A DNA stretch of 59,391 nt, filler included, from Sanchytrium tribonematis (taxonomy: Eukaryota): NCBI GenBank assembly GCA_018985235.1. It is 5 parts of 5 records of this genome, joined end to end, with 100 filler letters (N's around TTAATTAATTAA, not from the genome) between each part and the next. Parts side by side here need not be neighbours in the genome. Positions count along the whole stretch, not along the records: positions 1 to 11,841 come from JADGIG010000244.1; positions 11,942 to 23,763 come from JADGIG010000245.1; positions 23,864 to 35,657 come from JADGIG010000246.1; positions 35,758 to 47,527 come from JADGIG010000247.1; 1 more part is not named here. One strand, written 5' to 3'. Every line of letters starts with the position of its first letter. Within the stretch, counting starts at the first letter, position 1. Positions 3,889 through 47,527 of the stretch are shown here, piece by piece. Position numbers and translations under genes: made by a program. The notes beneath the pieces were generated by a model. It worked only from the letters and a program-made list of their open reading frames with translations, was not told the DNA's origin and ran no database searches.

Positions 3889-4225
3889 TTATTGTGTGCT
3901 TTCTTTTAAGTAAGCAATTAAGTCTTCACGATCTGATGCTTTTTTCAAACCAGCGAACGCCTAAATAAAATTATAGTACCATTTTGGTTCCTGGAATGTA
4001 CTTCTTAGGATTTTCTAGATACTCAAACATGGTTTGCTCACCCCATTCCACTCCACTTCCTTTGTTCGCAGCTGTATAGCCATAGCCAGGAGCACTACCA
4101 GCAACTCTACCAAAAATGCCCCAAAGGTTAGGGCCAACTTTGTGAGGACCGCCATTTTCAACAGTGTGGCACTGAGCACATCTTGTCTTGAATAACTTAC
4201 TTCCTTTAACTGAATCACCAGCCAT
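3889..4225 (-). CDS. CYC1: Cytochrome c (2 exons: 4225-3980, 3960-3889; 105 aa)
   Basis: CAQCH heme motif. Removing the 19-nt intron restores [27 protein letters not shown]. Confidence 0.97.
3961..3979 (-). other. 19-nt spliceosomal intron (phase 0) in cytochrome c
   Basis: GTACTATAATTTTATTTAG; removal restores the conserved GTKMAF. Confidence 0.93.
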
Positions 4226-4397
4226 TTCTGATCTGTTTCACAAGGATCATCGTGCCAGAGTTGTTTTCAGGTAGCCACATTTTTCAATTACTAAGACTTG
4301 ATAGAATAGAAAATTTAAATCAGTGATATCGATATAATCACAATCTAAGAAAAAGAGTTGGGAATTTTGCCTATGAAATCACTTTATTTTGAAACAA

Positions 4398-8873: not shown

Positions 8874-8876
8874 TCG

Positions 8877-10415: not shown

Positions 10416-10450
10416 GAGTTTTAAAAGGGACCTTAATTTATTTATCACAT

Positions 10451-11841: not shown

Positions 11842-11941
11842 NNNNNNNNNNNNNNNNNNNNNNNNNNNNNNNNNNNNNNNNNNNNTTAATTAATTAANNN
11901 NNNNNNNNNNNNNNNNNNNNNNNNNNNNNNNNNNNNNNNNN
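11842..11941. other. Artificial contig-joining spacer
   Basis: 44 N + TTAATTAATTAA (stops in all six frames) + 44 N; identical at four positions. Confidence 0.97.
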
Positions 11942-13644: not shown

Positions 13645-13667
13645 AAAATGAAAAACAAGGAGAATTT

Positions 13668-15128: not shown

Positions 15129-15209
15129 TTTGGAGAACTCCTGTTTGAATCTTTAGGAGTGACGCATTTTTACAAGTATTATTATTTTTGAAACTTTTGC
15201 TGATATTCA

Positions 15210-15915
15210 ATGAACAAGCAACTCTACAAATTTCAGACCGAAATTAAAGTCGTTCAGCATAAATTAAAGGCTACTTTTTCTAAAAAGAAAGCAAATCAAC
15301 ATAACCAAAGATTCGAAATATCTCAACTGTTAAAAGATAATAGGATAAATCACGCCAAAATAAAAACTGAATATGTTATTCGGGATGACTACATCATCGA
15401 GGCAATGGAAATTATTGAATTATATCTGGAATTGATTCTTGTCAGATCTCAGTTAATATTTAAAAAAGATTTTGATGAAAACTGTTTAGAAGCTATAGCT
15501 GGGCTTATTTATAGCGCGCCTAGACTCAATGATGTGCCAGAACTACTCAAATTACAACATATATTATCCTCATTGACGCGAGACTTGTTTAAAAATAAAA
15601 AAGACCTAGAATGCCCGGAATTAATATCAAAAATCAATCCAAAATTGAAAAGACTTGTTGATATGACAAGGGCACGTAATCATATTTTATCTAGCACCAG
15701 AATTAGTTGTCAGATATTGCCAAGAGATTGCGGATGCGTACTCTATCAAAATCGTTATTACCAATTCCGATTTGCTGGATAATACCAAAGAGATTGAGGA
15801 ATTACTAAAGGATATACCAGATCAAGAAAGTAGCGATAGTGATGATCAGAAGCCTAATGTTTCTGCCAATGATATAGAACTTTTGCAAGACAGACTCAAT
15901 CAATTGAAAAAATAA
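15210..15915 (+). CDS. IST1: ESCRT-III-associated Ist1 (2 exons: 15210-15675, 15695-15915)
   Basis: AKIKTEYVIRDDYIIEAMEIIELYLELIL and IYSAPRL. Splicing gives RAP|PELVVRYCQEIADAY and a MIM-like end LQDRLNQLKK*. Confidence 0.88.
15676..15694 (+). other. 19-nt intron (phase 1) in IST1
   Basis: GTAATCATATTTTATCTAG; removal restores the frame. Confidence 0.88.
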
Positions 15916-15925
15916 AATACCTAAT

Positions 15926-16805
15926 TTATAAACCAACAGTAGTTAAAGGCTGATCGTGAACATAGACGGGGTAGCTTCCTAAGACTGTGACTTCAGAACA
16001 AAATTCTCTTAGATTATCCAAGGCTCTTTTAATCTTTTCTTCAGATTCGCTTCCTTCAATATCAACACAAAATACATGTTCCCATTGAGAAATTGCATTT
16101 TTAGCCTTACTAGAAGGAAAAGATTCTATTTGACAGATGTTGATTTCTCTTGTTGCGAAACATCCAATACTCTAAATTAGTAAAAATCACCTTGTATAAA
16201 CTTCCAGGTCGATTCTGCAATCTAATAATCAAAGTAGTTTTCGTAGGCTGGCCACTTAATTTTAATTTTTCCGTCTTGGAAACTAAGAAAAATCTTGTCA
16301 AAGAATTCGGATCATCAACCCTTTCAACAATAGTCTTCAAATTGTAATGGTCGGCAGTTTCCTTTGGAGCAATAGCAGCATAAGCCTCAGATTTTTTATC
16401 AGCAACTAATTTGCAAGCTTCAGCAGTATCGTCGACATGAATCACATGAATTTTCTTTTTTTCCAAGTATTGCTTGCACACACTAGCGAGGTGACCAACA
16501 ACAACAATATGTTCCAACTTACTAGAGTCTGTCGAATTACCAACCAATTGCAACGGCTTCGACCAGTAGTATTCACCTACGACATTCCATTTGTGATCAG
16601 CAATAAGTCTGAACATCTCACTTAATGTATGAGAGCTATTTTGGATGGCCAAGAATGCATACGGATGCGAACTTTGCAACAATTCTTCATAAGTCGAAAT
16701 CGCCGAGAAGGATGCTTCTAATTTTGCTTTGCCAGAAAATTCTTTTAAAGCAAGGCTGGAATAGTTGTTTTCAAAACCATGGTAAGCGATTGTTGATTTA
16801 GTCAT
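15926..16805 (-). CDS. PHA2: Prephenate dehydratase with C-terminal ACT domain (2 exons: 16805-16191, 16171-15926), divergent
   Basis: NSLTRFFLV; spliced ACT domain RPGSLYK|SIGCFATREINICQIESFP...WEHVFCVDIEG...VLGSYP. Confidence 0.82.
16172..16190 (-). other. 19-nt intron (phase 0) in prephenate dehydratase
   Basis: GTGATTTTTACTAATTTAG; removal restores the ACT domain. Confidence 0.9.
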
Positions 16806-16825
16806 ACAAAGGAGAAAACGGCCAA

Positions 16826-17479
16826 ATGACTGCTGGGTTCAAATATAAAATTGTTGATTCAAAAGATATGAGCGAGTATATTATAAAATTGCTCATGGCA
16901 ATGGAAACGGAACATGACAAATTGACTATCGGAATTGCAGGATCTTTTGTTGCTAGTCTACTAGTTGGGTTAAAACCCAAATATCCACAAAATTGGTATT
17001 TCATACTTGCAGATGGCCATTTTGTTCCATTTGAAAGCAGAGATTCTATCTTACTACATTTGTCGCAGATTCCAATTCCTCGTAAAAATATAATTTTATT
17101 TGACCAGAGCTTGGATTGCAAAAGTGCAGCAATTCAGTATGAAGAATTCATAAAGCCATACCTTCCATTAAAAATTTATTTGCTAGGAATTGGGGTTGAT
17201 GGACATGTGTGTAGCCTCTTTCCAGGTCATAGAATGCTTCAATCTGAGAGAATTGTAGATTTTATTGAAGATTCTCCAAAAAATCCTCCGAGAAGAATCT
17301 CACTGACGTTAAAAACAATGAACGATCATGGCTCTAAACGAGTTATAGTCGTGGGTGGTAGTCAAAGATTGGAAGTGGTAAAGAAAATCTATCATCATGA
17401 CAAATCGATACCTGCTGCTAATCTTGAAAATTGTATATGGCTCTTAGATGAAAACTACAATTGTCTTTCAGATATGTAA
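16826..17479 (+). CDS. 6-phosphogluconolactonase-like protein, divergent paralog
   Basis: LLGIGVDGHVCSLFPGH and DSPKNPPRRISLTL. The DER motif is changed to DGH. Confidence 0.85.
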   Translation: MTAGFKYKIVDSKDMSEYIIKLLMAMETEHDKLTIGIAGSFVASLLVGLKPKYPQNWYFILADGHFVPFESRDSILLHLSQIPIPRKNIILFDQSLDCKSAAIQYEEFIKPYLPLKIYLLGIGVDGHVCSLFPGHRMLQSERIVDFIEDSPKNPPRRISLTLKTMNDHGSKRVIVVGGSQRLEVVKKIYHHDKSIPAANLENCIWLLDENYNCLSDM

Positions 17480-17487
17480 TTAAGCTT

Positions 17488-18291: not shown

Positions 18292-18350
18292 TAAAATTTA
18301 CCCCTGTATTGATAATATAAATTATTGTAGCAATTTAGCCACGGCGTAAA

Positions 18351-19031: not shown

Positions 19032-19055
19032 ATTTTGAAATGGCGGAGAATCCAA

Positions 19056-19724
19056 ATGCAACATATCTTTTCCACCAAAGCGCAGCTTACAAAGGAATTG
19101 CTTTCATCGATATTACAAGCCGAAAAAACCCATTTTGAAAAATACTCAAACAAGCCATTCGTAGTTGCTGTAGCTGGTGGATCTCTGCCATCCATGTTGA
19201 AGGATTTAAAGCCGGAATGTCCAGAAAAATGGAAGGTCATCTTAGCGGACGAGCGAATTGTGCCAATTGAGCATGAGGATTCCAATGGCAAATTGTTGCT
19301 TGAAAACATGAGTTACATATCGAAAGATAATATTATACTAATCAACAATACTTTAGCGCCTCAGGAGTGTGCAAAAGATTATGAGCAAAAAATATCTGCG
19401 ATTTTGCCAATTTCATTAGCATTATTAGGAATGGGACCTGACGGTCATATCTGCAGCTTGTTTCCCGGCCATAAACTCTTAAATTCGACCTCTACAGTGG
19501 ATTACATAATTGATTCGCCGAAGCCACCTCCAAAGAGAGTCACCTTGACGTTTCCTATATTAAATGATGACTTAACTGACAGATATCTAATTGCGACTGG
19601 TGGTGGAAAATCGTCTGCGATTAAAAAATCGATTTTGAACAAAGACAAATCTTTACCAGTTTCTCATTTAAAAGACTTACAATGGTGGTTAGATGAAGAA
19701 GCAGCCAAAGAATTACCAAAATAA
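19056..19724 (+). CDS. 6-phosphogluconolactonase
   Basis: AGGSLP, LADERIVP, LGMGPDGHICSLFPGH, DSPKPPPKRVTLTFP. First in-frame ATG at 19056. Confidence 0.92.
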   Translation: MQHIFSTKAQLTKELLSSILQAEKTHFEKYSNKPFVVAVAGGSLPSMLKDLKPECPEKWKVILADERIVPIEHEDSNGKLLLENMSYISKDNIILINNTLAPQECAKDYEQKISAILPISLALLGMGPDGHICSLFPGHKLLNSTSTVDYIIDSPKPPPKRVTLTFPILNDDLTDRYLIATGGGKSSAIKKSILNKDKSLPVSHLKDLQWWLDEEAAKELPK

Positions 19725-19738
19725 ACTTACTTATTTAC

Positions 19739-23056: not shown

Positions 23057-23127
23057 TTGTGAAAATTGACGTTCACCTTTCACAAAACACTTTTAATACA
23101 AAATCTGAAGCAGCATTGCCCTGACAC

Positions 23128-23763: not shown

Positions 23764-23863
23764 NNNNNNNNNNNNNNNNNNNNNNNNNNNNNNNNNNNNN
23801 NNNNNNNTTAATTAATTAANNNNNNNNNNNNNNNNNNNNNNNNNNNNNNNNNNNNNNNNNNNN
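23764..23863. other. Artificial contig-joining spacer
   Basis: 44 N + TTAATTAATTAA + 44 N. Confidence 0.97.
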
Positions 23864-24049
23864 AAGATTGGTTTTGATAAGTTATCTGAGATTTCCTCCT
23901 AGTCAGATGATTTTCATTTTCAGGACATCGTAAATTGATTTGATTTGCGGAACAAGATCTTGAGGTGATCTAGGACATGTCATCTACATTTTTGTCTGAT
24001 TCTTTACTTCGAGAAAAAAAGGCATAATGTTTTTAAAAGGCCAACAGAA

Positions 24050-25606: not shown

Positions 25607-25624
25607 TAAATTATATTTACTAAT

Positions 25625-28190
25625 TCACGTTCTTGGTTCTGCCTGTAATGAGAGCTGGTACGCAATTTCTTCGGACATCACTGGGTAGGTTTGGATATAA
25701 TTGATCAAATCTGGAACTGGTTGCAAATTATATCCCTCTTTTTGAAAATATTTTAATTCTAGCACAATTGATGCCATCTTTTGATACTTTTGGAAGTTGA
25801 TCATTCCATTCTCATGGACATTTTTGGAGTAGGTGTCAAGAAATACTAAATCGCTTTGTACAATTCCTACGTAAAATAATAATACCAGGAAATGGAATGC
25901 AAGGAAGCGTCATCTCCCGTATGCATTTTCGTAAATTCTTGAAATTGGACTCGGTGCTCATAAGAGTATTCAGATCTCTATGAATTTGTTGAATTTTGTT
26001 CGAAATACCGGCTTTTGTTTTTTTCATCCTATGAAGTGCAGAGTGCGACAAAGCTGCAAGAACCTCTTTCACTCCATTGTAATTTCTCAATTTTTCTAAT
26101 GCTTGGGCGATAAGTATGAGTTTTTCAATGGCCTGTGTACGAACCTTAATGTCTTTAATATTAACAATCTCACTTACAAACCACATGATCAAATGATTTG
26201 AAAATTTAGCCATACGGATCAGATTTGGAGCCTTCTTTTCTTTGTCAGATGCCATCCAAGATTTTTGAATAAGTTCTTCTGCTTTTAATTGTGAAAATAA
26301 TTCAAATTCAATCAATGAAATTTGTCTAGCAATTTCAACAGCGTCTATCTCTAACAAATTAACGCGATAATCATCAGAAGATGTGTTGAAATTATTAACG
26401 GTAACTTCAATCGTGAAAGAGTCGCCAAGTGGAATTCTTCGCGAAATTTCAACTGGCCCATTTTCCGATTGAATGCCGTACCTTTTGGCAAGTTGTTTTG
26501 GCAGAATGGGCTTTAATCTTGACTGGCTTTTGTCATCCAGTAGTATGGGAGTAGCCATAGTACGGATTCCTGTCAAAGTGTCGTTTTTCTTAATTAGCTC
26601 AGCGACTTTTTGCTGTTTGTCAGCCGATAGCATCGGCCTAATAGTAATTATATCTTTTAATTTTGATCTCAACTCTACATTATTTGCAAAATCATCCCAA
26701 TAATTCTTAATCCAATGGCATAGAATGTCTCTCAAACGAATTTCGTAAACGGGTCTGTGAGTTTCTTGGTCCTTTACAATTATATTAAAAAAAGCTTCCA
26801 ACTCATCCAGTACAAATTGAGGAGTCGTAAATTCTCTATATGTCAAGAAAAAGTTGTCGATGAAAATCGAGTCGTAAGTTGGACATTGCAGCAATCTTTG
26901 CACTAATTTAGATGGAGTTCCACCCTTGACTTCTTGCAAAGCATTTTCGTTTTCAACAATTATAATTCCCTGCTCTTCTTCTTCTTTTGTCGGGGATCGT
27001 AATTGCTCCAAAAGCTCTTTCTTTATGTTTGTTCTGCAATGAATCAATTGCTCCTGAAGCTGATTCCGGTGTTCTTCTAAAGATTTTACCATCGCTTCCA
27101 AGTGCCTTATTTTCTCAGCGGCTTCGCTCGGGGTTCCTGGAGATACAGCCACTGCAGAATCAATTTTACTTTCCTTATCAGAAGAAGTTGTATTCTTTCT
27201 AATTAAGGTGGGAGTTGTAGGTTCATTATTTGTGGTCGACCTGGAGAGACTTTTGAATTTTGAAGTTTCTTTATTTTCATCAATTGAATGAGTAAGATCT
27301 GTGGAAAAAAGAGGCTTATCTTCAATATTTAGACTCAATTGCAGGGGAATGTTTCCGTTCAAGTTGTTGCTATTAGAGCTTCCTACTGAGCCCGAGTGTG
27401 GTTTACCTTTTTGTTCGAATGCTTTCTTTTTTAAACTGTCTAACTGGTGTTGATGTTGTGACTGAAATTCTTTAATTAGATTAGAATAGTACAACACATT
27501 TTGGTTTGTTTCCCTTTCGTAAAAAAGGTGCTTATTTTTGTAAAAATTGATTTGAGCATCCTTTGTGGCAAGCATGTCTTGTAAATACTGGACATAGTCC
27601 ATTAAGCGAGTCTCTCCATTTTCAACACCTGCTACGTTCTCAAGAATCTTGATTTTTTGTTCAGTCGTTAGCTTTTCTCTGATTAAATGTTTAACTTGTG
27701 ACTTGACTGTATCCTTAAAATCTGTGTATTGTGCGACAATCTGAAGCAATGATTTGCTAACTAATTCGACATCTCTTGGCAATTTTTTCTTTATTTCTTC
27801 AAATTGAGATTCTTGCTGGACATGAGTTAGGAGGAGCATCATCTCTGTTTTTGCTGTTCTAGATACATCTAAAGGCAACTCTCCAAAATCGTTGACAAGA
27901 TTTCTGTTTGCTCCACGATCTAATAATATTCTTAAACAGTCATCATTTCCAAATGCACTAGCATAATGAACAGCAGTGTTGTTATATTGATCTCTGGCAT
28001 TGATGTCGACCTCGTCTAACAATCGTCTCAAGATCGCAGGTTGATTTAATAAAACTGCATAAAAAGATGCAGGTGCTTTCATTTTTGGAACTGGCTTATT
28101 TAAACTGCCGCGATTTTTAGCTATATATTTATCTACCGCTTCGTAATCTGCTGAAGCTATCATATCAAGTAAAAAATCATCAACAGGCAT
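25625..28190 (-). CDS. Ankyrin-repeat Ras guanine-nucleotide exchange factor (ANK, coiled coil, REM, CDC25); 2 exons: 28190-25886, 25866-25625
   Basis: ANK repeat DINARDQYNNTAVHYA; REM FFLTYREFTTP; CDC25 EIARQISLIEFELF and LRNYNG. Splicing gives PCIPFPG|IVQSDLVFLD...INFQK...LSLQAEPRT*. Confidence 0.9.
25867..25885 (-). other. 19-nt intron (phase 1) in RasGEF
   Basis: GTATTATTATTTTACGTAG; removal completes the CDC25 domain. Confidence 0.9.
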
Positions 28191-28287
28191 ATGAAAGCCA
28201 CACGACTTTTGAGCTAAATAAAAAAGCCTAGTTTTAATGAGGTTTTAACCAACATAAAGGGCTGCGAATTGTTTATTTTATGTGAAT

Positions 28288-29014
28288 CTACAATTTCCTG
28301 GGCTGGGACTCTTCCACACCCAAAATAACATTTCCAAATTTACGACCATCTATTTCTTTAATGGCTCGCTGCACTTCTTCTGGAGTCAAGTAATTTACAT
28401 AAGCATAACCCTTGGCTTTACCATCAATAATAGGCAAATACATTCTTGTCACCCGCCCAACTTTACCCATTAGTTCCCTTAAATCATTCTCAGTACACTC
28501 CGGAAATAAATTACTAACTCTAACAGAATAGGAGACGGCTAAATAAAAACGAATTACGCATAGCTGAGGAAATTCCAGCTTCCATCTGCTTCCTTCTGCT
28601 AGGAGGAATATATTTGGACGCTTGAGGCTCGGGCATTGAAGCAGACTCTTTCACTTCTGTATTGGATGTCTTCATTAAATCTTTGTTTGGACATCTCATG
28701 CTCAAATGTTCACCAGAACAAAATCGACAACGAATTGAGCCAACCTTTTTTACTTCTTGCTTAAATTGCTCGTCCTGTGAATTTTCGATTTCTTTTGAAT
28801 CTAAAGAAAGCTTGACTATAATATTGTCAGACTCCTTTAGTGAAAAAGACTTGTAATCACCAAATTTTGGAATTTTTCTCTCATGAATTCTTTTAAACTT
28901 CTCGATCAGATTTGGAGATTGCGTAGTTCTTTGTATGCTTAAATTTTCACCATTTCTTTTAGTCATAATTGTCAAAGTGCAACCTTCATCTCCGAAACTT
29001 AATTGAGTTGCCAT
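28288..29014 (-). CDS. TIF35: Translation initiation factor eIF3 subunit g (2 exons: 29014-28558, 28538-28288)
   Basis: CRFCSGEHLSMRCP zinc knuckle and KYIPPSRR. Spliced RRM reads SVRVSNLFPECTENDLREL...AKGYAYVNY. Confidence 0.88.
28539..28557 (-). other. 19-nt intron (phase 1) in eIF3g
   Basis: GTAATTCGTTTTTATTTAG; removal joins the RRM in frame. Confidence 0.88.
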
Positions 29015-29192
29015 AGGTCTTTTCGAGGGGCATTCAACGGACAAGAAATTAAGATATCACAGGTGGAAACCTGACTCACCACATTTTATGAGACTCAGTG
29101 ATCGCTGAAGAAATCTTGGCATACTTTATAAAATTTTGTATTTTTCTGACGCGTTGGCCATTTTTTGAATTTAAAGCCATCTCAAATTTTCA

Positions 29193-30533
29193 ATGTTCCA
29201 ATATCAATTAGATGAAAAACAGAAAGACGAGAATCTGGCCAGAGCTTTAATGGCGCAAGAGAAGAGAGTCCATTTTAGAAGAAATAATCGCATTGCCGTA
29301 GAATTTGAAAAAGAGAGGTTGGAGCTAGAGGAAATGATAAAGCAAAAAGAACTAAAAGAGACTCAAATGCTGAAATTTAAGCAATTGCAAGATGAAGAAG
29401 AAAGAGTTGAAAATCAAAAGAGGAATGCATTAAGACATCAAAAAATGAGACAGTTAGCACGAGAAAATCATGAAGTGAGATATTTGAAATCTCAACTCCA
29501 AGAATTGCTTACAAAAAAACAGCAACATGTACAAATAGAGCAGCATCTAATAGAGAAGGAATTAAGGCAGCTAGAAAAAGAGAAACTCAGGGTGGAAATT
29601 GATCATAAGGTTCATGATTTTGAAGTTGATCTTCAAAAGGAAGAAAACATTTCTAAAGAGCACCAAAACTGGTATAAAGAAAGTCTAGACGCACAATTGG
29701 TAGACATTGAGCTGCGTCAAGAGCAAATGTTCCAAGAATTTTTAAAGGAAAAACATTTAATTGATAATTTGGTCAAAACAATTCAGGAAGAAAACGCACT
29801 ATTCTCGCATCAAAAACAAATAGATAAGATGCAAGTAAGACAGTATATTAAGGACTTTTTAGCGGAACAAGACAAATACAAGGAGAAACAAAAGCTTTTG
29901 GAGAAAGTAGAAAATGATAAAATCAAAGAGTACGTTGCCCAGAAAGAGTCAAAAAAAGCAGAAGATAGTCACAAAAGGAACGCATTAGACGAAGTTCGAG
30001 ACAAAATTTATGAGCAACTTGCTGCTAACATAAAACAACGAGATATCGAACAAAAGGAAAGAGAAGAAATAATATTTCAAGTCGCAAGGCAAAAACAAGA
30101 CGAAAAAGAAAAACAAGACATCGTCAAGGAATTCGAAAAACGAACAAATGAAAAAATAATTTTACTAGATTCTTATAAGCACCATCTACTTTCCAAACAA
30201 GAAAGTCGGAAAAAAGATTTAGATATAAAAATAAAAGAAAAGGAAAGGTTATTGGAGCAACTCAAAGAAGACAAAGCTTTAGAGCAGCTAACTTTGGCTG
30301 CTAAAAAGCGACGGATGGCTACATACCACCATGAGTTATCCTTACTAGTCGCATATAAACAAAAAATGCAAGTAGATTTAGAAAACAGTGAAAAAGAACT
30401 GACGCTTAAGCTGCTCAAGATAGATCAAGAAAAGGAAGATCTGATCGCGAATGAGAAGAAAAAAATTGTAGCTGAATATAGCACTAAGTTACAAATTCCG
30501 GAGATCGAGCTTGTGAAATATATAAATAAATAA
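29193..30533 (+). CDS. MNS1: MNS1-like axonemal coiled-coil (TPH-domain) protein
   Basis: KMRQLARENHEVRYLKSQL, QEFLKEKHLIDNLVKTIQEE and LEQLTLAAKKRRM resemble MNS1 conserved blocks. Confidence 0.7.
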   Translation: MFQYQLDEKQKDENLARALMAQEKRVHFRRNNRIAVEFEKERLELEEMIKQKELKETQMLKFKQLQDEEERVENQKRNALRHQKMRQLARENHEVRYLKSQLQELLTKKQQHVQIEQHLIEKELRQLEKEKLRVEIDHKVHDFEVDLQKEENISKEHQNWYKESLDAQLVDIELRQEQMFQEFLKEKHLIDNLVKTIQEENALFSHQKQIDKMQVRQYIKDFLAEQDKYKEKQKLLEKVENDKIKEYVAQKESKKAEDSHKRNALDEVRDKIYEQLAANIKQRDIEQKEREEIIFQVARQKQDEKEKQDIVKEFEKRTNEKIILLDSYKHHLLSKQESRKKDLDIKIKEKERLLEQLKEDKALEQLTLAAKKRRMATYHHELSLLVAYKQKMQVDLENSEKELTLKLLKIDQEKEDLIANEKKKIVAEYSTKLQIPEIELVKYINK

Positions 30534-30659
30534 ATTTTAACGATATTCAACATCTAGAGTGCTTTAAAATATTCCATAGTAACTTATGGAGAAAATTTTC
30601 AAGTGGTCGTCTGAGTGATGTTATGATCTCCGTTTTCGTATTTTTCTTTGGTAAAACAA

Positions 30660-33600
30660 ATGCAGTCAGATCAAAAGAGCAAGAAGGAATTGACTGCTCA
30701 AGATTATTCAAAAATCAGCTGCTTACTACGTGAGTTAGAAATCTACTCTGACCAAGACATTTGCCAATTTGTAATGGATGCTTGCAATGCCGATACTTTG
30801 GATTTAAACCTTGAAGACGACGGGATGTCTTTGCTTAATGCTAGAACCAGCTCATATGGCGCAAAACTAGCTATACGAATGAATGAAATGATCGATTCTG
30901 ATATTTTGGAGTATATGGCTAGCAGGGTTGAGAGACAATCTCAGATTCGAAATCGTTATCATAATGTGAAAAGACATCAAGCTCAGCTAGCAATGAATAA
31001 GATAGCACCTATAGAGGAAGAGTTGCTAAGTATTGAGGACATTCCCGAAATAGTCGACCAAGATTATGACCATATTAGTCCACAAGATAGCGATGAAGAA
31101 TATGGCATCCCAACTAAAAGAAGATCATCATTTGCTGTCGAAAGACCTGAGAAAAGAGCCAAGTTAAATGAAGTAAAGCAATGGACTTTACTCTCAAAAA
31201 GAGTTGTAAAACATGCTAGGCATTTTCCTAAAACATTCATCGTGAAGCATTTAAATTCCATTAAAGATGTGGCAAAGCATCAAATTAGTCATGTAGAGCT
31301 TCTTTCTAAATGCAAGCAGCTCACAAAAGATGTTGGGGTTTTTATCCGCAAAAAGGATAAAATCGAAAGAGAATATAGAAAAAAAGCAGAAAAAGAACAG
31401 TATGAAAAAGCTAAAGCAGAGGAAGAGAAACGGGAATCACAAAGACAAGCTAGAAAACTAAATTTTTTGATAACTCAAACAGAAATTTATTCCCATTTTG
31501 TTGGGAAAAAGGATCAAGCTGAAAATGATGACAAAAATGGGATGATCATAGACCAGCCAATTGATTTTGACAACGAGGATGAAGAATTACTTAAGAGGCA
31601 AGCTGCAGACAAAGCTCAATCTGCTTACTTGAAGACCCAAGCTCATGCAAATGAATTTAATCAAGTGAGCTCTTCTGGAATCGAAAACATTCAGCAGCCA
31701 GATTTACTGAAATGCACTTTAAAATCGTATCAACTAAAAGGTCTAAATTGGCTTGCGGGATTGTACGAACAGGGTATAAATGGGATTCTGGCTGATGAAA
31801 TGGGTCTAGGAAAAACTGTCCAGAGTATCTCTTTACTTGCTTATGTAGCTGAAAAATATGGCATCTGGGGTCCGTTTCTTGTGGTAACGCCAGCTTCTAC
31901 TCTTCACAATTGGCAGAATGAATTTTCGAAATTTACACCTTCTTTTAAGACAGTTCCATATTGGGGCAATTCGAAAGAAAGGCAATCAATGAGATCTCAA
32001 TTTCGTGCCAAGGGTATTTGGAGCGAAGAATCTGCTGCCCATGTAATTATAACATCCTACCAATTGGCAGTTCAAGACCAACAGTATTTATCAAAGTTAA
32101 AGTGGCAATTCTTGATACTCGATGAAGCCCATTCTATAAAATCAAGCAGTTCTGTAAGATGGAATACACTTTTAAAATTCAATTGCAGAAATAGACTTCT
32201 TTTGACAGGAACTCCAATTCAAAATAGTCTTCAAGAATTGTGGGCATTATTACATTTCATTATGCCAACTTTGTTCGACAGCCATCAAGAATTTGCCGAA
32301 TGGTTTAGTAAGGGTATTGAAGGAGACACGAAAAGCATGAATGAGCACCAGCTTAAACGGTTACAGGCTATTTTAAAACCATTCATGCTGCGAAGAGTAA
32401 AAAGCGATGTGGAAAATGAGCTGCCCGAAAAAATTGAAAAAGAATTACCTTGTCCTCTGACGCATCATCAGCGAAGGATGTATAGATTGCTCAAGAAAAA
32501 AGTCAATCTTAAAGATTTATTAGAAAAAGCAAATTTATCTAACAACAAAACCGACGACACACTAATGAATCTAATGATGCACTTTAGAAAAATAACAAAT
32601 CATCCAGAACTATTTGAACGGAGTGACGTGACTTCTCCATTTCATTTTAGCGAGATTAAATTTGGGGAAATTGAAGAAAGCAGCGACTTACACATGCATT
32701 CTGGTAAATGGACATATTTCAGGTACCCTTCATTGATTGGCGCGGCTTTCTTAAACAACATAGAAGTCAAAAAGATTTTTAGGCAAAAAACAAACATTTT
32801 TAGTCACAGATACACAAATGATGACTACTTAAATTGGACTGCTGGCTATTCGAAATCAAGATTAGGAATCGCTAGAATGCTTTTGGACGATTTACAGGTT
32901 TCAGTACCTTCTGGTTTGAGTATCAAAAAGCTGCAACCATTTGAACCGTTCTATATACCCTCAGTAACTTGCGAAGGTCTTAGAATCACGTTTGGGTCTT
33001 TGGAAATAGACAAAGCCTATTACAGCGATCTTGATAGATCAATGAGAAAGAATTTGATTTTGTCGCATGGCCTTCCTCTTACAATTTGGGAAAAACACTT
33101 GGGAACGAACATCGATAGAACCAATATCGACCCAGATGAACTGCAAATGTTGCAATCTCTTTACGATCAGGATAAACCTTATGGAACTGCCTCATTGGGA
33201 AGGAGAAACAACACTTTTCTAAAAGTTCCGACAATCAATGATCTCATAAGTAGTAGCGGAAAATTACTAGTGCTAGATGATCTATTACCCAAATTGAAAG
33301 AGCAAGGACATAAAGTTCTTCTGTATTTTCAAATGACCAAAATGATGGATATTATGGAAGAATATCTGACCTATAGGGCGTTTCAATTTGTACGTTTAGA
33401 TGGTTCAACCAGTATTGAAGAGCGTAATGAAAAGGTTCAGAAGTTTCAGGACAACGACGAGCTTTTTATATTTATTCTCAGCACCAGAGCTGGAGGAGTC
33501 GGTATCAATTTGACAAGTGCTGACACAGTTATTTTTTACGACCAAGACTGGAATCCTACGTAGTTTCATTTAACTTAGAGCTGATCAGCAAGCTATGGAT

Positions 33601-33783
33601 CGCTGTCACCGTTTGGGGCAGACAAGGCAGGTCACTGTATATCGAATGATAACTAAAGGAACAATAGAAGAAAGAGTTTTACAAATGGCGAAGAGAAAGC
33701 ACGACATACAGAAGGCCGTAATAGCAGGAGGAGATTTTAAGCAAGTGGTGGAAGATTTATTACAAGACGACGATGATGAGTAA
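30660..33783 (+). CDS. INO80: Chromatin-remodelling ATPase Ino80 (2 exons: 30660-33559, 33579-33783)
   Basis: DBINO motif [38 protein letters not shown], split helicase. Splicing gives [19 protein letters not shown]. Confidence 0.96.
33560..33578 (+). other. 19-nt intron (phase 2) in INO80
   Basis: GTAGTTTCATTTAACTTAG; removal restores the DWNPxxDxQAMDR motif. Confidence 0.93.
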
Positions 33784-33785
33784 AA

Positions 33786-35057
33786 TCAAACTTTTTTCTT
33801 CTTGATGGATTTGACACGGTTGACGATCTCTTCTGCATCTTCTGATAGCGGCTTTCTCTTCTTTTTGTTGCCCAAATTAATGTCCTTCATTTGTTGACTA
33901 GCCAAATGATTTGCTTCTTCAACACTATCCATTAAAATTTTTACAGCTGCGTCATCAAGATCATATTTTTCCAATTTTTTTTGAATAGCATTTTCAATTC
34001 TTTGATACACTTCCACGTCATATTGCGTAACAAAAGTAACAGTATTGCCGTGCTTACCTGCTCTCGCAGTCCTCCCTACACGATGTAAGTAATTTTTAGA
34101 TGACATTGGCACATCGTAATTAATGACATAACCTACTTGAGGAATATCTAGCCCACGAGCTGCGACATCTGTACAAACCAAAATGCCCTTATCTCCAGAT
34201 TTAAATTTGTTGAGTGAAGCCAAACGCTTTTGTTGACTCATTTGTCCATGTAGCGGCAAAGAACTGAATCCGAGGTTTCTTAGCATTAGGGCTACTTTTG
34301 TTGATGCAGCACAGGTAGCAGTAAACACAATGCAACTTTTTCCTGCAATTTCGTTCAGTATATAAGTTAAGTAACAATCTTTGTATTTCAATGGGAAGAA
34401 TAGATAAGTTTGATTCAGAGTGTCAACTGTGTCGTACTTAGAATTAGCTTCTACTGTTACAGGATCCCTTAAATTTGCCCTTTGTAATTTGTGGACTTTA
34501 CTTGTCATTGTTGCACTAAAAAGCATGGTCCTGCGATCATCAGGTAAGCACTTAAATATTAAATCAATCTTAGGCCCATAATCCGAGTCTAATAGGCGGT
34601 CTGCTTCATCCAAAACAAGATATTTGGCATTTTTCAAGGAAAACCCTTTAGTATTTTCTAAATGATCTGCGAGTCTACCCGGTGTAGCCACAACAATATG
34701 TGGTTTTCTAGAAAGTGCAATTTTTTGCTGAGTCATATCTACACCACCTACCAAGACTGCACAACGAACACCAATAGTTGAACCCAAAGCTGAGAATTGA
34801 TCGCTGATTTGAAACGCCAATTCTCTGGTTGGAGCCAATATTACAGCATAAAAGCTGGCGGGACTGTTCCATAAATGATGTAAAATAGGTAATGCAAAGC
34901 AAGCTGTTTTTCCCGATCCCGTTTTTGAAAGACCTATAACATCTTTTCCTTCCAAAGCAATGGGGATAGTTTTCAATTGAATGTCTGTGGGTTCTTTGTA
35001 TCCAACTGACTTGCACGCTTCCACTAATTCCGGAATTAAACCTAAAGCGGAAAACAT
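33786..35057 (-). CDS. RRP3: DEAD-box rRNA helicase Rrp3/DDX47
   Basis: [43 protein letters not shown]. Confidence 0.95.
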
Positions 35058-35117
35058 CTCCTTGAATTATCCTTCTCCAAAAGTTGATATTAAAATATTT
35101 TATTAAATTAAAAGTCT

Positions 35118-35657
35118 CTAGCTTAGAAGCTCAAATTTGATATGTCCCAAATCTAATGTGGTATCTGTAGTAATATCAAGGTGCCTAAAACTGCCGTAAA
35201 TCCCGTATTCTGCATTTTTGGTACAATAATCATAAAACTTACTACATTCATTAATGATGTAAAAGCTGGTGACTACACCATTACTTCTACAATGCATGTC
35301 AGTCAAAAAGATCCCTGTTTGTGCTAAAAGTGATAAAATAAAATCGAAATGAAATGTAGATACTGCTACCTCTTGGTCATACAGCAATATCCACACATCG
35401 TCTGATTTGTATATTATAAAGTCATTATCGTATTTGATGTCTTTGAGGTATTTTAATTTCAAAGTCTGACAATATATTTCAATGACGTTTGACATTTTCT
35501 CTTCCAATGTACCCTCTACTAATAATGCGAATGGTTTTAGAAATCCAGTTGTTTTTTGCCAACCATTAAGAGATATTGCGATATCCCCAATTAATGAAAA
35601 CGTAATGGAGGATGTTATAAAATTTGATATTATTGTAATTAAATCTTGGGAATTTTT
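35118..35657 (-). CDS. Hypothetical protein, C-terminal part (5'-partial at contig end)
   Basis: The frame of ORF 35118-35507 stays open up to the gap. No motif recognised. Confidence 0.55.
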   Translation of the reverse strand, partial: KNSQDLITIISNFITSSITFSLIGDIAISLNGWQKTTGFLKPFALLVEGTLEEKMSNVIEIYCQTLKLKYLKDIKYDNDFIIYKSDDVWILLYDQEVAVSTFHFDFILSLLAQTGIFLTDMHCRSNGVVTSFYIINECSKFYDYCTKNAEYGIYGSFRHLDITTDTTLDLGHIKFELLS

Positions 35658-35757
35658 NNNNNNNNNNNNNNNNNNNNNNNNNNNNNNNNNNNNNNNNNNN
35701 NTTAATTAATTAANNNNNNNNNNNNNNNNNNNNNNNNNNNNNNNNNNNNNNNNNNNN
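35658..35757. other. Artificial contig-joining spacer
   Basis: 44 N + TTAATTAATTAA + 44 N. Confidence 0.97.
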
Positions 35758-36656
35758 AAATAATGGAAAACCTGTAGGATATTCCATTCCTGCAACTGAG
35801 CATTCTGTTATGACTGCTTGGAATACTGAAAAAGAAGCCATCTCAAACATGATCAACAGGTATGGAGATGGAGTGTATGCATGTGTAATGGATAGCTATA
35901 GCTACATGAAAGCTTTAACTGATGTTCTTCCAAGTATTTATCAGGAGAAAATAGGGAAAGGCGGATTTTTGGTATTAAGGCCAGATAGTGGTGATCCAGT
36001 CGAAACAGTCTTACAAGCCTTAAGAGCCGCTGAGCGTGTATTTGGCTGCAGTTTTAATCAAAAAGGTTACAAAGTAATTAATGGATGTGGTGTGATTCAA
36101 GGCGATGGAATCAATAAGGACACGGTCCAAAAAATACTCGAAGCAGCAGAAAAGGAAAAATACAGCGCAATGAATATCGCATTTGGGATGGGAGGTGGTT
36201 TGTTACAAAAGCATAACCGTGATACAATGTCTTTTGCTACCAAGTTATGTTTTATCGAATACGCCACAGGAAAATCTAGAAATGTTATGAAAGCTCCCAA
36301 AACAGACTCGGCTAAAATATCGTTACCAGGAGAGCTTTTTGTCTATCTCAACGATCAAAATGTATCATTTACTAATGAAGTTGCCCGTTGTTTATCCCAA
36401 AAATGATCCAAAATATCCTCCTCCTAATTTCAAGTCAGTTTTGAATCTTGTTTATGATGGGACAGACCCTGAACTGAGGAATTTTGGATCTGAACACCCT
36501 CCCTCTGTAGGAAAACCCTCTAAACATACATTCTGGGATATGTCATTTGATGATATTAAAATTAAACTGCAATCAAATTGGGACAAGTATCCAAAGAGCC
36601 ACGACCCATTAAGTAAGGAATTGAAAGAAAACATCAATAATACATTAAGTTTATAG
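35758..36656 (+). CDS. NAMPT: Nicotinamide phosphoribosyltransferase (NAMPT/NadV), 5'-partial; exons ..36361 and 36381-36656
   Basis: SIPATEHSVMTAW, VMDSYS, LRPDSGDP, IQGDGI, AFGMGGGLLQKHNRDT. Confidence 0.9.
36362..36380 (+). other. 19-nt intron (phase 0) in NAMPT
   Basis: GTATCATTTACTAATGAAG (AAG acceptor); removal joins ORFs 35810-36406 and 36339-36656. Confidence 0.82.
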
Positions 36657-36672
36657 CAAGCCTAATAATTTA

Positions 36673-38191
36673 TTAGGATACTGAAAACAGTAAATCACCA
36701 GTATCTTTTTCATTTTCATCTTCATGAAAACATCCAATTGATCTGTAGTATCTCTCTGTCATATTCATTTGGGTCATGATTTGTATTTCTTGTTTTTCTG
36801 GGTCTTCCTCGTCAATGTCTTGTTTAAAAACGGTCGAATCGTAACTTTCATTTGATTTTTCTTGAAGAGCCTTTGGATCAGTAGCGACTTTTTTATCTTT
36901 TGCATCTTCTCTAGATTTTTTAGTAGCAGCCTTGGCTTCTTTTTCTGCTGCTTTTTCTTCCCATATTTTTTCAAGATACAAGTCACAAATTTCCAAGTCA
37001 GAAGATGCAATTGAGGATTTCTCAACAACTTTTAAATTTTGCGATATGACCTGCATTACATTTTGAGGATGGAATATTTCTGGAAATCCAAGAGCCTTTA
37101 GAAAGTCGTTGGCTTTGTATGTACATTTATCTATACTGGGGCAAAGAGTGACATTTTCGCGAATGTATTTCCACAAAAATTTAAGGCCGATATGTCTAAA
37201 TTATTATGATATACCTTGGAAAATATCGCACTTGGCAAATTTTGGCAAATTCGGGACTCGGTTCGAAATATTTCATATTTACATAACGGGTATGCCGTTT
37301 CCCTTCATTGATTTTCAATTTGAGATCTGTTGCATTTGAAATTTCTTCCAATATTGTATCCTGGTTTGTTGCCAACTTTTCAAGATCTACTTCGTACAGA
37401 AATTTAGCACCTGAAAGTTGTTGTTCTGAATTAATACTATTCTTACTAACTTTTTCCAGTTGACTTTTAACGTAATTTGAAAGCTCTGCCGTTGAAATTA
37501 CCTCAACATTTAAAATCTTTTTGAGCTCTTCGTCACAAAATATGCGACCACGACTTTTAAGAATGTCTTTCTTTTTGATAACAGAAATGAATTTTGAGAC
37601 TGCATGTTTGTAAGTGGAGTATCGTGTTTTAATTATGCCTGCTAGATCATCTGAGCATTTCAATAATTTCATTCGTCTATATTTCTCAGGAATTTCTATC
37701 TCTTCAACATTTTCAAGGCTGTTTTTAGTAATAATAGGATCAAGATGAAGTCTGAAATTGAATTTTGAGGGCTCGAATATTCGCACGCTGCACAGCCTTT
37801 GCAAATTTTCATCTGCTAATATGCGCCCTCCACATAACAGATTATTATGAAATGCATAATCCCACACCAAGCCTTCCACCTCATGCTCCTGCACCACCTC
37901 CTTCCCCAGAATTGGAAACAATTGAGAACTAGGTTTGTACAAATTTGTCTCTTTTGTCTTTGCAGAAGGCGTCTCTAGGTGAGGAAATTCGAATGCTGTG
38001 GACTGGTAGTGTTGATGAACACTCAAGATGATGTGGTCAGTTAAAAAATCCTTAATATGGTCTAATTTAAGGCCCATTTTTCTCTCAATTTCACTCCTAA
38101 TTTCTAATAAGGTTTTATCAAATACATCCTCTCTTTTAATTATAGGATACACATGACTTAAAATTTTCTGCAATAGTTCGTTGTTTGTCAT
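36673..38191 (-). CDS. DEK-C-like plus multiple SWIB/MDM2 domain protein (Uaf30/Tri1-like); 2 exons: 38191-37215, 37195-36673
   Basis: LLEIRSEIERKMGLKL, then three SWIB-like units (PSSQL...VWDYAFHNNL...ADENLQRL; CSDDL...IFCDEELKKIL; PSPEF...PR|HIGLKFLWKYIREN). Confidence 0.7.
37196..37214 (-). other. 19-nt intron (phase 2) in the SWIB-domain gene
   Basis: GTATATCATAATAATTTAG; removal joins the two ORFs inside the third SWIB unit. Confidence 0.85.
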
Positions 38192-38340
38192 GTTTCAATA
38201 TCAAGATATGAAATTTTGGAAAATGATTAAAAATTTAAACAAGCACATAAATGGCAAATGGATTAACTCAATGAACTTCTGATATTAGGCCGATGATGAG
38301 AAGGCGCATTTGTGATACAAAAATTTGCCATCTCCTTGAA

Positions 38341-41300
38341 ATGACACAGTCCGATATTTTGGACCATCAATCAAGTGAAATAAACCCTACGTCAAATCAT
38401 TCTCTCTATTTAAAACGGATTGTTGTTGAAAATTTCAAATCTTACTTTGGAAGACATATAGTAGGTGATTTTGACCAGCAATTTACCTCCATCGTGGGCA
38501 GCAATGGAAGTGGGAAAAGTAATATCATTGATTCTTTATTATTTGTATTTGGTTTTAGATCTAATTATTTAAGACATCAGAAGCTTAGTAATTTAATCTA
38601 TAGCGGACATGTTCAATGTGATTTTTGCGTTGTTGAACTCCATTTTGTTCATGAAAGCACGACAGATTATATTATAAGTAGAAAGGTTGATTTAAACAGC
38701 CAAAGTACTTATTACATCAATGGAAAGAGTTGTCCTTTTAAAGTAGTAAGGGAATTAGTAACTTCTTGGGGGATCGATTTGGATCACAATAGATTTATGA
38801 TTCTTCAAGGTGAAATCGAATCGATTGCTCAAATGAAACCAATTGGTAGTAGTACTGTTGCGGGCATTCCCACTCCAGATAAGAAATCGACAGGTTTACT
38901 TGAATACTTGGAAGACATCATTGGAACAACAGAATTTCATAATCCGTTATTTGAAACATTTAATCGTGTCCAGGAACTTGATACTCAAAGAGAGGTCTGC
39001 TTACGACAAGTAAATCAGGCAGAAAAAGATCGAAATGAACTGCAAGCTCCTTTTGATGAGGCGATTGAATATATAGCAAAACAAAATGAGGTGACAGAAT
39101 TACAGAATATGCTTTTTCAGCAGCAAAAAATGCTTCAACTGGAAGCGATTGAAAACTTACAGAATTCAATGGAAAAATTAGAACTTAATATCAAAGAAAA
39201 CGAGGCTAAAAAAGTTTTACTTCATAAAAATAGTGAGTCTATTACTTCTGAGATGAACGCGTTTCTAAAGAATCATCAAGAAAATGAAAATGTTGTGGTT
39301 GAAATGAAAAAAAGGGTTCTTTTTTTAGAAAAAGAGCTAGTGAAGACTGGAGAGGAGCTCAAACATTCCAAATTGACATTGAAAAAGAAACGTTCAGCAT
39401 TAGAAGACGCTCAAACTAAACTAGGAAGTCTGAATTTAGTGAATGACGATACAATTGAGGCTTTAAAACAAGAAATCAAATCTATCGAAGAACATTTGAA
39501 AGATGAGACAAAATTGCTAAACAAGATGAGAATTGCAATCCGAAAAGAATTAGAACCGATTGAAAAAAATTGCGACGCAATTGAAAAAGAATTAAACCCA
39601 ATCCAACTAGAAATAGACTCGAAAAAGAACAAAATGCAAGTAATCGCCAAGGAATATACCGACTTGCAGAAACTTTGGAAAGAATCAACTCAAGGAGATC
39701 AGAATAATTTAATAGCTGATTACGAAAACCAGATAGCCTCCAAAAAAGAAGAGATTGAATATCTTAATGCCCAAATCCCCGAATCAAATTTCTCAATTTC
39801 CAAACTGAGGAATGAAATTACTCAAATTGAAGATCGCAAACGGGGATTGGTCAATGAGTCTGAGTCTATTAGAGCAAAATTAGAAGACAACAATTCGGAA
39901 CAAGCTTTTACTCAGTCCCAAGATCAGACTTCAAAGTCTTTATACAACTTGAAACAACAGATACGTGGAATCCACGGCAAGCTCGGTGATTTGGGAGTAA
40001 TAGAATCAAAGTATGACATAGCTGTATCGACTGCTGCTCCATCGTTGCACAATTTTGTTGTTCAAACAGTACAGGATGCAAACAGCTGTGTTCAATTTTT
40101 AAGAGAGCGAAATCTTGGGCGCACAACCTTTATAGTTTTGGACAAACAGAATTCTTTTAATAACCACAAGATAACTACCCCAGAAAATGTACCGCGTCTT
40201 ATTGATTTGATTCAATGTGCAGAGGCGCATAAACCTGCATTTTATTTCTCAGTTAGAGATACCATTGTCGCTAAAGACATAGATCAGGCAAGGCGAATAA
40301 GTAATTTTGGTGGACGAAGATGGAGAGTCGTCACATTGGATGGCAAAATGATTGAACCCACAGGAGTAATGAGTGGGGGTGGAAACCGATCATTTTCAGG
40401 CGCTATGAGAACTTCTGAGGGCACACATAAGATTTCCTCCGGTTACGATAGTGCCGAAGTCAAAAAATTAGAAAAACTGTTGGAAAAACAAGAAGTATTG
40501 ATTAAAAAGATTGATTTTGAACTGAAGCCGAAGCAAGATCAACTAAAAACACTTCTTGACAATGTCCATGACTTAATAGCGGTTCAGGATGAGTTGAAAG
40601 AAGAATTGAGACAGATTGAATTGAAAAGGGATGAAATACAAATTTCAGTTTATACAGAGGCAGATGAAACTCGAAAAAATTCATTGGAAGAGCAAAGAAA
40701 ACTTATTTATAAAGAAATTCAAAGTCTTACTGTACAATCAGAACCTTACCTTATGAGACTTCAGTCGGCGCGCGATCTTTTGAAAAAAACCGGTGGTGCG
40801 GAATTGAATCAAAAAGAAACTCGAGTGAAGGATCTGGAGTCTTCTAAAAAGTCATTAACCCAAAGATTGAATGTTTCAAAACAGGAAAAAGTCAAATATG
40901 AAAAGGATTTTAAACGATTTAGCAGAGATAAGGACCGCTTCAATGTTGATGTTCACAATTTGGAAAAGCAAATAGTGGAACTTGAAAAAAATGACAGCTT
41001 AAAATCTATAGAGCTTAAAAAGCTTAAAGAGGACTTAGTGTTGCGCGAACGAAATTTCGAAGAGCAAAATGTTCACATAATAAAATGGAAAGAAGATATT
41101 GGTATCATTGAAAAGGAGCTGAACATGATAAGAAAGACTCAGGTAGATTATGACAATCAACTTGATATTATTAAAAGGGAAGGTAGAGCCTCTGAAAAAG
41201 AACTAAGGCGTGTCGAGGAATTAATCGGAAAATTGGAAATGATCGGAATAGACAAAGATGACGATGAAATGGAGGTTGACAATGCTCTGAAGTGCTATAC

Positions 41301-42073
41301 TGGCGATGAGCTTGATGCACTGGATCCAAAAAGTGCCAGTCGAGAAATAAAAAAGCTGCAAGAAACCATAAGTAAAATGAAGCCTAATCTGAGATCAGTT
41401 GAGGACTATAGACAAAGACAAAAAATATTGAAAGAAAAGCAGCAAATTTTAGATGAATGTAAAGAAAAGCGCAACTCTGTTAGGGCGGAATTTGAGGCTT
41501 TGAAATCTCAAAGATTAGGAAAATTTATGAATGGCTTTAACATAATTACAAAAAAATTGAAAGAAATATACTCTTTTCTAACTATGGGTGGCAACGCGGA
41601 ACTCGACTTTGTTGACTCATTGGATCCTTTTAGCGAAGGGATTCATTTTAGCGTTATGCCGCCTAAAAAAAGTTGGAAACTAATCGGAAATTTAAGTGGG
41701 GGAGAAAAAACTTTGAGTTCTTTGGCTCTAGTCTACGCTCTTCATCATTTCAAGCCCTGCCCTATATATGTGATGGACGAGATAGGTAGTTTTAGTTTAT
41801 TTAGATGCAGCCTTGGATTTCAAAAACGTGGACATTGTAGCCCGATACGCAAAAGAACAATCTCGAAATCAAGCTCAAATGATTATTATTAGTCTTCGAA
41901 ATGATATGTTCGACAAGGCGGACAAATTGGTTGGAATTTACAAAATCAATGGATGCACAAGATCTATTACCACTGATTTAAATAAGTTACTTGAGCTTAA
42001 ATTTCATATCAAAAAAGAAATAGAGCCACCGATATCCCAAAAATCGAAGAGAAATTTCGTTTTGAAAAAATAA
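38341..42073 (+). CDS. SMC4: Condensin subunit Smc4 (2 exons: 38341-41785, 41805-42073; an alternative ATG at 38293)
   Basis: ENFKSY, GSNGSGKSN, IDLDHNRFMILQGE, hinge GIHGKLGDLG, LSGGEKTLSSLAL. Splicing gives YVMDEI|DAALDFKNV and IIISLR. Confidence 0.96.
41786..41804 (+). other. 19-nt intron (phase 1) in SMC4
   Basis: GTAGTTTTAGTTTATTTAG; removal restores Walker B/D-loop DEIDAALD. Confidence 0.94.
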
Positions 42074-42154
42074 ATTACTGGTTTGTCATACGGCGTAGTC
42101 TAATTATCTAAATCGGGTCTAAATTCTTTATATGGGGAACGGCCCTCAATATTG

Positions 42155-42757: not shown

Positions 42758-42764
42758 ATTTTAT

Positions 42765-45614: not shown

Positions 45615-45685
45615 GAATTTGTATAATTGTTTTAGGGAGGAATTTCAGGAGAATATTACTGCAAATCAGATTAAAATTCTTTGGT

Positions 45686-47446: not shown

Positions 47447-47527
47447 TTTGTTTTTCACCTTTGTTTTAAATTATTGCAAAATCAAATTTACTAATCCTTT
47501 TAATCAATAATCTCCCAAATTATCCAG

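Follow-up and report, generated by a model that had tools for sequence, protein, structure and literature searches.

Nineteen-nucleotide introns with a candidate fixed branch point in the sanchytrid fungus Sanchytrium tribonematis

Can introns be held to a single length of 19 nucleotides (nt), and where would a spliceosome place the branch point in them? The question is raised by a 59,391-nt stretch of DNA from Sanchytrium tribonematis, one of the sanchytrids, small fungi that parasitise algae. In this stretch, here called the window, nine genes carry one 19-nt insert each, starting with GT and ending with AG. From the sequence evidence set out below, the nine GT-AG inserts of one length are considered confirmed, and their reading as real tiny introns is supported. 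They are likely (probability about 0.85) miniature U2-type spliceosomal introns in which an invariant adenine at position 14 (A14) would be the branch point, splicing and branching being what we infer from this evidence.

Nine inserts of one length

The window (assembly GCA_018985235.1) consists of five contigs of about 11.8 kb joined by N-padded spacers (11842-11941, 23764-23863, 35658-35757 and 47528-47627) with a 12-base linker carrying stops in all frames, and genes facing each other across a spacer are not real neighbours. The first four contigs are gene-dense, with about 35% guanine plus cytosine (GC) and 29 genes over about 45.0 of 47.2 kb.

The nine 19-mers of the original prediction were all found in the window as quoted (Table 1), with GT...AG termini in 9/9, as in U2-type introns. 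Their removal restores the reading frame in all nine genes, each having a single intron. An open reading frame (ORF)-repair scan blind to the motif, in which any GT/GC-AG cut mending a long ORF was taken, recovered eight of the nine introns; the one in cytochrome c was missed because its last exon is under the length threshold. In six of the eight recovered genes no AT-rich GT candidate other than the 19-mer came up; the ankyrin-RasGEF gene had two such candidates and SMC4 five. After removal of 19 nt, the junctions are gap-free against homologues in the three genes aligned, prephenate dehydratase (PDT), SMC4 and Ino80, and cutting out 16 nt instead in SMC4 introduces a gap against the homologues. 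A scan of the 29 genes with the motif profile, at lengths of 14-40 nt, returned the nine sense 19-mers, none antisense and none intergenic; every other length had at most two matches, with no class of comparable size. DNA contigs of the sequencing run X1, possibly the window's own source data, read continuously through six of the introns, free of joints and gaps, and no second-allele difference among those listed lies within an intron. On 23864-35657 and 35758-47527 the same run has clustered second-allele differences at about half depth, suggesting a heterozygous or mixed sample.

Other candidates were rejected. The remaining AT-rich ORF joins (5' ends -10469, -13682, -25628, +30513, -36681 and -42768) continue beyond the stop of the gene concerned, into its neighbour or the antisense strand of that neighbour; the join at -42768, of 36 nt, carries the 3' motif. 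At +31825, a 24-nt candidate that keeps the frame belongs to the conserved coding sequence of Ino80. Short first exons were sought at 26 gene starts; the four AT-rich candidates that emerged all lack the full motif. One 19-mer, lying before a PhoD-like gene (about 45621-45639, +), combines T12 and A14 with G15. It would be an exception at the 5' side, but it was counted as chance because its ATG overlaps the start of the opposite gene.

Table 1. Introns and marker genes of the window, with putative branch adenines; the 5' end of a minus-strand intron is the higher coordinate
Feature	Gene (extent)	Coordinates	Strand	Phase	Putative branch A	Last coding exon (nt)	Remarks
19-nt intron	cytochrome c (3889-4225)	3961..3979	-	0	3966	72	Pfam Cytochrom_C on exon 1
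19-nt intron	IST1 (15210-15915)	15676..15694	+	1	15689	221	Pfam Ist1 on exon 1
19-nt intron	prephenate dehydratase, PDT (15926-16805)	16172..16190	-	0	16177	246	ACTAAT; gap-free junction against P0370, P0371, P0373 and P0375
19-nt intron	ankyrin-RasGEF gene (25625-28190)	25867..25885	-	1	25872	242	RasGEF profile match ends at intron, position 155/181
19-nt intron	eIF3g (28288-29014)	28539..28557	-	1	28544	251	Pfam eIF3g on exon 1, RRM_1 on exon 2; last exon carries the RRM
19-nt intron	Ino80 (30660-33783)	33560..33578	+	2	33573	205	relatives broken at same site
19-nt intron	NAPRTase-family gene (5' end lost at contig end; stop 36656)	36362..36380	+	0	36375	276	ACTAAT; ends AAG
19-nt intron	SWIB-domain gene (36673-38191)	37196..37214	-	2	37201	523	exon 2 without Pfam match
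19-nt intron	SMC4 (38293-42073)	41786..41804	+	1	41799	269	AG upstream of branch skipped; two relatives broken at same site
gene	RRP3/DDX47 helicase	33786..35057	-				intronless; placement marker
gene	WD40 protein	2261..3598	+				Pfam: generic WD40 families only; putatively the spliceosomal U4/U6 protein Prp4

The candidate branch point and the spliceosome that would read it

The original prediction had described an ungapped stack of the nine introns with T at position 12, A at 14 and a pyrimidine at 15, and a recount gave the same columns (T12 and A14 in 9/9; seven T and two C at position 15; five T and four A at position 13; eight T and one A at position 17). In 200,000 shuffles of the 15 inner bases of each intron, T-N-A-Y never arose at a common offset; a column made up of A alone was seen in 62 shuffles, and at least two columns were invariant in 318. 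Most of the signal comes from A14 because the intron interiors are 56% T and 64% pyrimidine. Among other GT-N15-AG 19-mers of the window, T12/A14/Y15 occur in 11/333, and in 3/39 of the AT-rich ones. The rest of the description also held: the donor is reduced to GTR (A in eight introns, G in one) with no G at +5 in any of them, positions 4-11 vary (position 5 is T in 7/9, near background), and the PDT and NAPRTase-family introns keep ACTAAT. The interiors are unrelated to one another. U12-type introns have a long conserved donor, RTATCCTT, and a branch motif of TCCTTAAC type; this assignment was rejected, as positions 4-11 vary.

The fixed T12 and A14 are backed by relatives. The public proteins of sanchytrids are plain ORF calls by TransDecoder (PMC8371127), so that the ORFs of relatives run into introns and expose part of the intron sequence. 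The read-through, unspliced ORFs of seven of the eight intron genes looked up are in the public protein collection letter for letter, which is why C-terminal parts such as the eIF3g RRM and the SMC4 end are absent from public sanchytrid proteins; such truncated proteins can bias claims of gene loss for the phylum. The Ino80 of Amoeboradix gromovi (P0129) ends DQDWNPT-YLLLT-stop. Read from the shared phase-2 site, the third Leu of this tail forces T12 and the Thr forces A14-C15, T17 being forced as well, and the stop falls on nt 17-19 as TAG if the intron is 19 nt long, a fit that random AT-rich interiors reach at 0.004. The SMC4 tails are MDEI-GKIH-stop (P0252, A. gromovi) and MDEI-GSLY-stop (P0251, from an ENA relative). 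In each of them the stop codon occupies nt 12-14, at the predicted T-A-A, with a chance of 0.06 each; the two proteins are orthologous and their tails not fully independent. In all, five relative tails were available at shared genes: three are informative and fitting, forcing T12 in 3/3 and A14-C15 in 1/1, P0131 stops at once as in the window, and P0130/P0248 fits poorly.

Pairing was modelled to U2 GUAGUA, the sequence given for Stentor and not the host's own U2. With A14 bulged, positions 12 and 15 pair in 9/9 introns, position 11 in 8/9, and positions 9, 10 and 13 each in 4/9, which amounts to three to six pairs per intron, and the nine introns thus have a branch-site-like motif that could pair with U2 round a bulged A. 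The kept pairs are those of the minimal yUnAy branch consensus. The claim that the fixed A at -6 is the branch point, with a predicted 14-nt lariat loop, is supported as the most likely assignment.

Here it is proposed that a largely ordinary major spliceosome would define the whole intron across 19 nt. U2 would pair with positions 9-15, A14 being bulged and only the bulge-adjacent pairs (12, 15 and mostly 11) being retained; branching at A14 would then leave a 14-nt lariat loop and a 5-nt tail, and the AG three bases beyond the branch would be docked without scanning, which would make Slu7 and Prp18 unnecessary. The acceptor would be the first AG after the branch, since the gap between A14 and AG is three bases and an upstream AG in SMC4 is skipped. 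Pairing of U1 and U6 would be weak, because the donor is GTR without G at +5, and the fixed spacing would make up the information lost from this donor. In yeast, Slu7, Prp18 and Prp22 are dispensable for step two when the branch-to-AG distance is below 7 nt (PMC3392075), the limit for Slu7 being also given as 9 nt or fewer (PMC10158995), and U1C defects bypass Prp28 (PMC3392075). Two structural claims fared less well. An intron with little room for simultaneous U1/U6 and U2 pairing is not what the spacing gives, as the footprints (+1 to +6 and 9 to 15) do not overlap in 19 nt and are less cramped than in Stentor. The absence of a polypyrimidine tract stands in so far as there is no room for one between A14 and AG, but the 3' half of the introns is U-rich, interrupted by A14.

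Splicing factors were looked up in the published annotation of A. gromovi (7,220 predicted proteins, of which about 3,700 have annotated rows), with present factors confirmed by the rows' own labels, a check that misses do not allow, and Prp39 tried with one identifier only. As in a major spliceosome, 21 of 27 factors are annotated (proteins only). These include, for recognition, U2AF35, U2AF65, SF1 (two adjacent ORFs), SF3B1, U1-70K, U1A/U2B'', Luc7 and Prp40, and also Prp8, Dbr1, Prp5, Prp2, Prp16, Prp22, Prp17, Cwc25, Yju2, Isy1, Cwc22, Prp6 and a Brr2-labelled helicase; both of the published sanchytrids have an annotated Dbr1, the enzyme that debranches lariats. A remodelled U1/U2AF/SF3b machinery had been expected from the intron design. 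With U2AF, SF1, SF3B1 and U1-70K annotated, a loss of this machinery is not borne out and wholesale remodelling is unsupported, while a weaker form, trimming, is hinted at: Slu7, Prp18, U1C, Prp28, SF3B6 and Prp39 were not found in this ORF-based list, weak evidence that counts as a hint only, because the list covers about 3,700 of the 7,220 proteins. Of the four factors that the original prediction had named for checking, U2AF65 and SF1/BBP are thus annotated and Slu7 and Prp18 are not found. Four of the six missing factors form two functional pairs matching this intron design, which is suggestive only. A U1-less spliceosome as in Cyanidioschyzon, where all U1 components and Prp28 are lost, was rejected, since U1-70K, U1A/U2B'', Luc7 and Prp40 are annotated in A. 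gromovi and only U1C, Prp39 and Prp28 were not found on that side.

Several points weigh against the branch assignment and the proposed mechanism. The sample is nine introns, their uniform length makes a 5' ruler and a 3' anchor indistinguishable, and a second A stands at -7 in 4/9. The junction alignments to homologues cover 3/9 introns. One Ino80 orthologue (P0130/P0248) terminates in DQGTT, three residues short of the shared site, a poor fit, and P0370, the PDT orthologue, shows no break at the intron site, so that this protein either lacks the intron or was called with it already spliced. Scanning the window against Rfam and for tRNAs gave no match, with no small nuclear RNA of the host, and the factor absences rest on a list fragmented by the introns themselves.

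Position near gene ends and alternative readings

Eight of the nine introns lie at most 300 nt from the stop codon, a region that holds 17% of the coding bases (binomial P 6e-6); a within-gene null reached this in 28/200,000 trials, or in 95/200,000 without the NAPRTase gene, which is cut at its 5' end. Seven are placed 205-276 nt before the stop, the SWIB and cytochrome c introns being outside this group, and all are at 0.65 of the coding sequence or beyond, with the same caveat for the NAPRTase gene. First exons of up to 3.5 kb precede the single intron, and 19-nt introns in the middle of genes could not hide because 19 nt always shifts the frame. This 3' clustering, which is not part of the original prediction, was noticed post hoc, in nine introns. 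Intron-poor genomes are usually 5'-biased (PMC532390; PMC8476143), so that the clustering is contrary to the standard account of intron loss; for filamentous fungi, introns near 3' ends are reported to be lost less often, an effect that can have a mutational cause (PMC532390). As a cause of the clustering, biased loss would be no less probable than a coupling with polyadenylation.

The introns were also considered as marks of convergent gene pairs, an idea rejected because 7/9 convergent is about the window background. Convergent genes in the window end 2-18 bases apart (15915/15926, 25606/25625, 33783/33786, 36656/36673 and 8873/8877), and their transcripts therefore likely overlap antisense.

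The clustering bears on a different view of the machinery, in which a markedly remodelled, U1-poor spliceosome is recruited mainly via U2AF/U2 by the 3'-end processing machinery, so that introns persist only close to the poly(A) site, where splicing would be efficient enough. Besides the stop proximity, the single intron after long first exons, the lack of G at +5 and the failure to find U1C, Prp28 and Prp39 in the A. gromovi list speak for it. It is nonetheless considered unlikely: U1-70K, U1A/U2B'', Luc7 and Prp40 are annotated, the SWIB and cytochrome c introns fall outside the cluster, low 3'-end loss in other fungi may be mutational (PMC532390), and the pattern was found after the fact in a small set. 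It is compatible with A14 as the branch point. In its furthest form, sanchytrid introns would all have collapsed to one 19-nt template, the shortest yet in fungi and animals, kept almost exclusively about 250 nt before gene ends and found from the 3' side, via coupling to cleavage and polyadenylation, by a trimmed spliceosome lacking U1C/Prp28 and Slu7/Prp18. This is a doubtful proposal at present; if true, it would invert what is seen in other intron-poor genomes, with their 5' bias.

The introns could also be spliceosomal with T-W-A-Y-N-Y-AG acting as an extended acceptor motif read by a U2AF-like protein, comparable to the nematode TTTCAG, and with branching flexible or elsewhere. The motif is contiguous with AG and T-rich, both U2AF subunits are annotated in A. 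gromovi, and Caenorhabditis elegans has a strong 3' consensus (PMC2483917), but an invariant purine is unexpected within a pyrimidine-binding tract, the conserved columns flank the bulged A of the U2 helix, for which two introns give the full six pairs, and A14 is the sole A between -10 and -3 in 5/9 introns, which makes this quite improbable. That the inserts are not introns of this kind (assembly or amplification errors, pseudogenising insertions, transposon footprints, or non-spliceosomal introns of Ire1 or tRNA type) is very improbable, since public protein sets do end these genes in or just past the insert, but nine of nine inserts share GT, AG and 19 nt with unrelated interiors, essential single genes would be broken, relatives whose versions of these proteins are only about 50-70% identical are interrupted at the same sites, the X1 contigs carry the inserts unchanged, and the window has no Rfam or tRNA match.

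The host genome and comparison with known introns

The host was placed with the intronless RRP3 helicase, which has 81% identity to P0002 (A. gromovi), 78% to P0003 and at most 66% to the other 117 proteins among the matches listed. A quick single-gene tree covering 50 of the 120 proteins puts the window protein, P0002 and P0003 in a long-branched clade (support 100) that is sister to Blastocladiomycota (87). This grouping with Amoeboradix on a long branch is that of Sanchytriomycota and agrees with their published position (PMC8371127), where the GC content of S. tribonematis is given as 34.6%. A metagenome scan with the RRP3 alignment (best 80 of 164 loci, 34-43% identity) gave no close relative and was not used. 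The RRP3 and Ino80 orthologues of two ENA relatives (P0003, P0130, P0131 and P0250) suggest that gene order is conserved and that public metagenomes contain at least two more sanchytrid-like genomes. In one ENA relative, the RRP3 (P0003) is without ten conserved residues and the Ino80 (P0130/P0248) has the early end noted above; these could be further mis-called tiny introns or assembly errors.

Flagellar proteins are kept in the window, DRC7-like (MORN_DRC7) at 24050-25606 (+) and MNS1-like (TPH) at 29193-30533 (+); sanchytrid flagella have been described as non-motile (PMC8371127). ORF reading also gave two putative, diverged 6-phosphogluconolactonase-like genes 1.6 kb apart (16826-17479 and 19056-19724), as well as a putative intronless Na/K-type P-type ATPase (19739-23056, -) and a putative BK/Slo-like potassium channel (42765-45614, -). 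The fifth contig (47628-59391) is gene-poor, with short broken ORFs, and has as candidates a DDE transposase-like gene (54289-54606, -) and a LINE-type reverse transcriptase-like gene (56471-59389, +).

A literature search on sanchytrid introns or splicing, with most subscription journals outside its coverage, gave nothing on the subject, and in the sanchytrid genome paper the word intron is found only within a reference title (PMC8371127). The -6 branch geometry is already known; what looks new is the lineage, the single 19-nt length and the 3' clustering, and 19 nt also looks new as a length below that of the fungal and animal introns in the literature compared. This would be an independent origin of fixed-length miniature introns, now inside Fungi. 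The recurrence of a 5-nt tail from branch to intron end suggests that geometry sets a lower limit to the second step of splicing, and two yeast results, Slu7 and Prp18 being dispensable at short branch-to-AG distance and Prp28 with a weakened U1C, would become natural experiments.

The closest likeness is to the 15-16-nt introns of Stentor coeruleus (PMC9505925), which are also GU-AG, AU-rich and of near-fixed length, with a presumed branch A followed by a 5-nt tail (-6) and few introns per gene. Stentor differs in being a ciliate, in its lariat loop of 10-11 nt against 14 here, in the lack of a strong reported branch consensus where T12 and Y15 are kept here, and in a 5' bias of intron position against the 3' clustering of the window. 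The introns described here therefore share the A at -6 with the heterotrich-type tiny introns and would work alike, but with 19 nt and a fungal host they are not members of that class. The original prediction had proposed convergence with ciliates; the Stentor parallel stands, but the same spacing is already present in the fungus Yarrowia lipolytica, so that it is not only a ciliate parallel. Y. lipolytica has its branch motif 2 nt before AG, hence A at -6, and no polypyrimidine tract, and differs in having rather long introns with strong consensus, whereas here both signals are degenerate (PMC2483917).

Among other reduced genomes, Mikrocytos mackini is likewise a reduced parasite having 16-17-nt introns of very narrow length with conserved internal sequence, but it is a rhizarian with 17-19 spliceosomal proteins found, against most factors annotated in A. 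gromovi (PMC10245619). The 18-21-nt introns of chlorarachniophyte nucleomorphs share the length range and GU-AG ends, and differ in about three introns per gene and no discernible branch A, against about 0.3 per gene and an invariant A here (PMC6009652). Opisthokont parasites with ultrashort introns include microsporidia (about 25 nt in Encephalitozoon cuniculi), Rozella (about 30 nt) and myxobolids (median 22-27 nt), all longer and length-variable (PMC6349667, PMC13644364). Myxozoans have a donor reduced to GTa, as here, but their A's move away from AG as length grows, where the A is fixed in the window (PMC13644364), and E. cuniculi, unlike S. tribonematis, retains strong donor and branch motifs (PMC6349667). 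According to Irimia and Roy, strong consensus is expected in intron-poor genomes with short introns; the nine introns of the window have instead rigid spacing and weak sequence.

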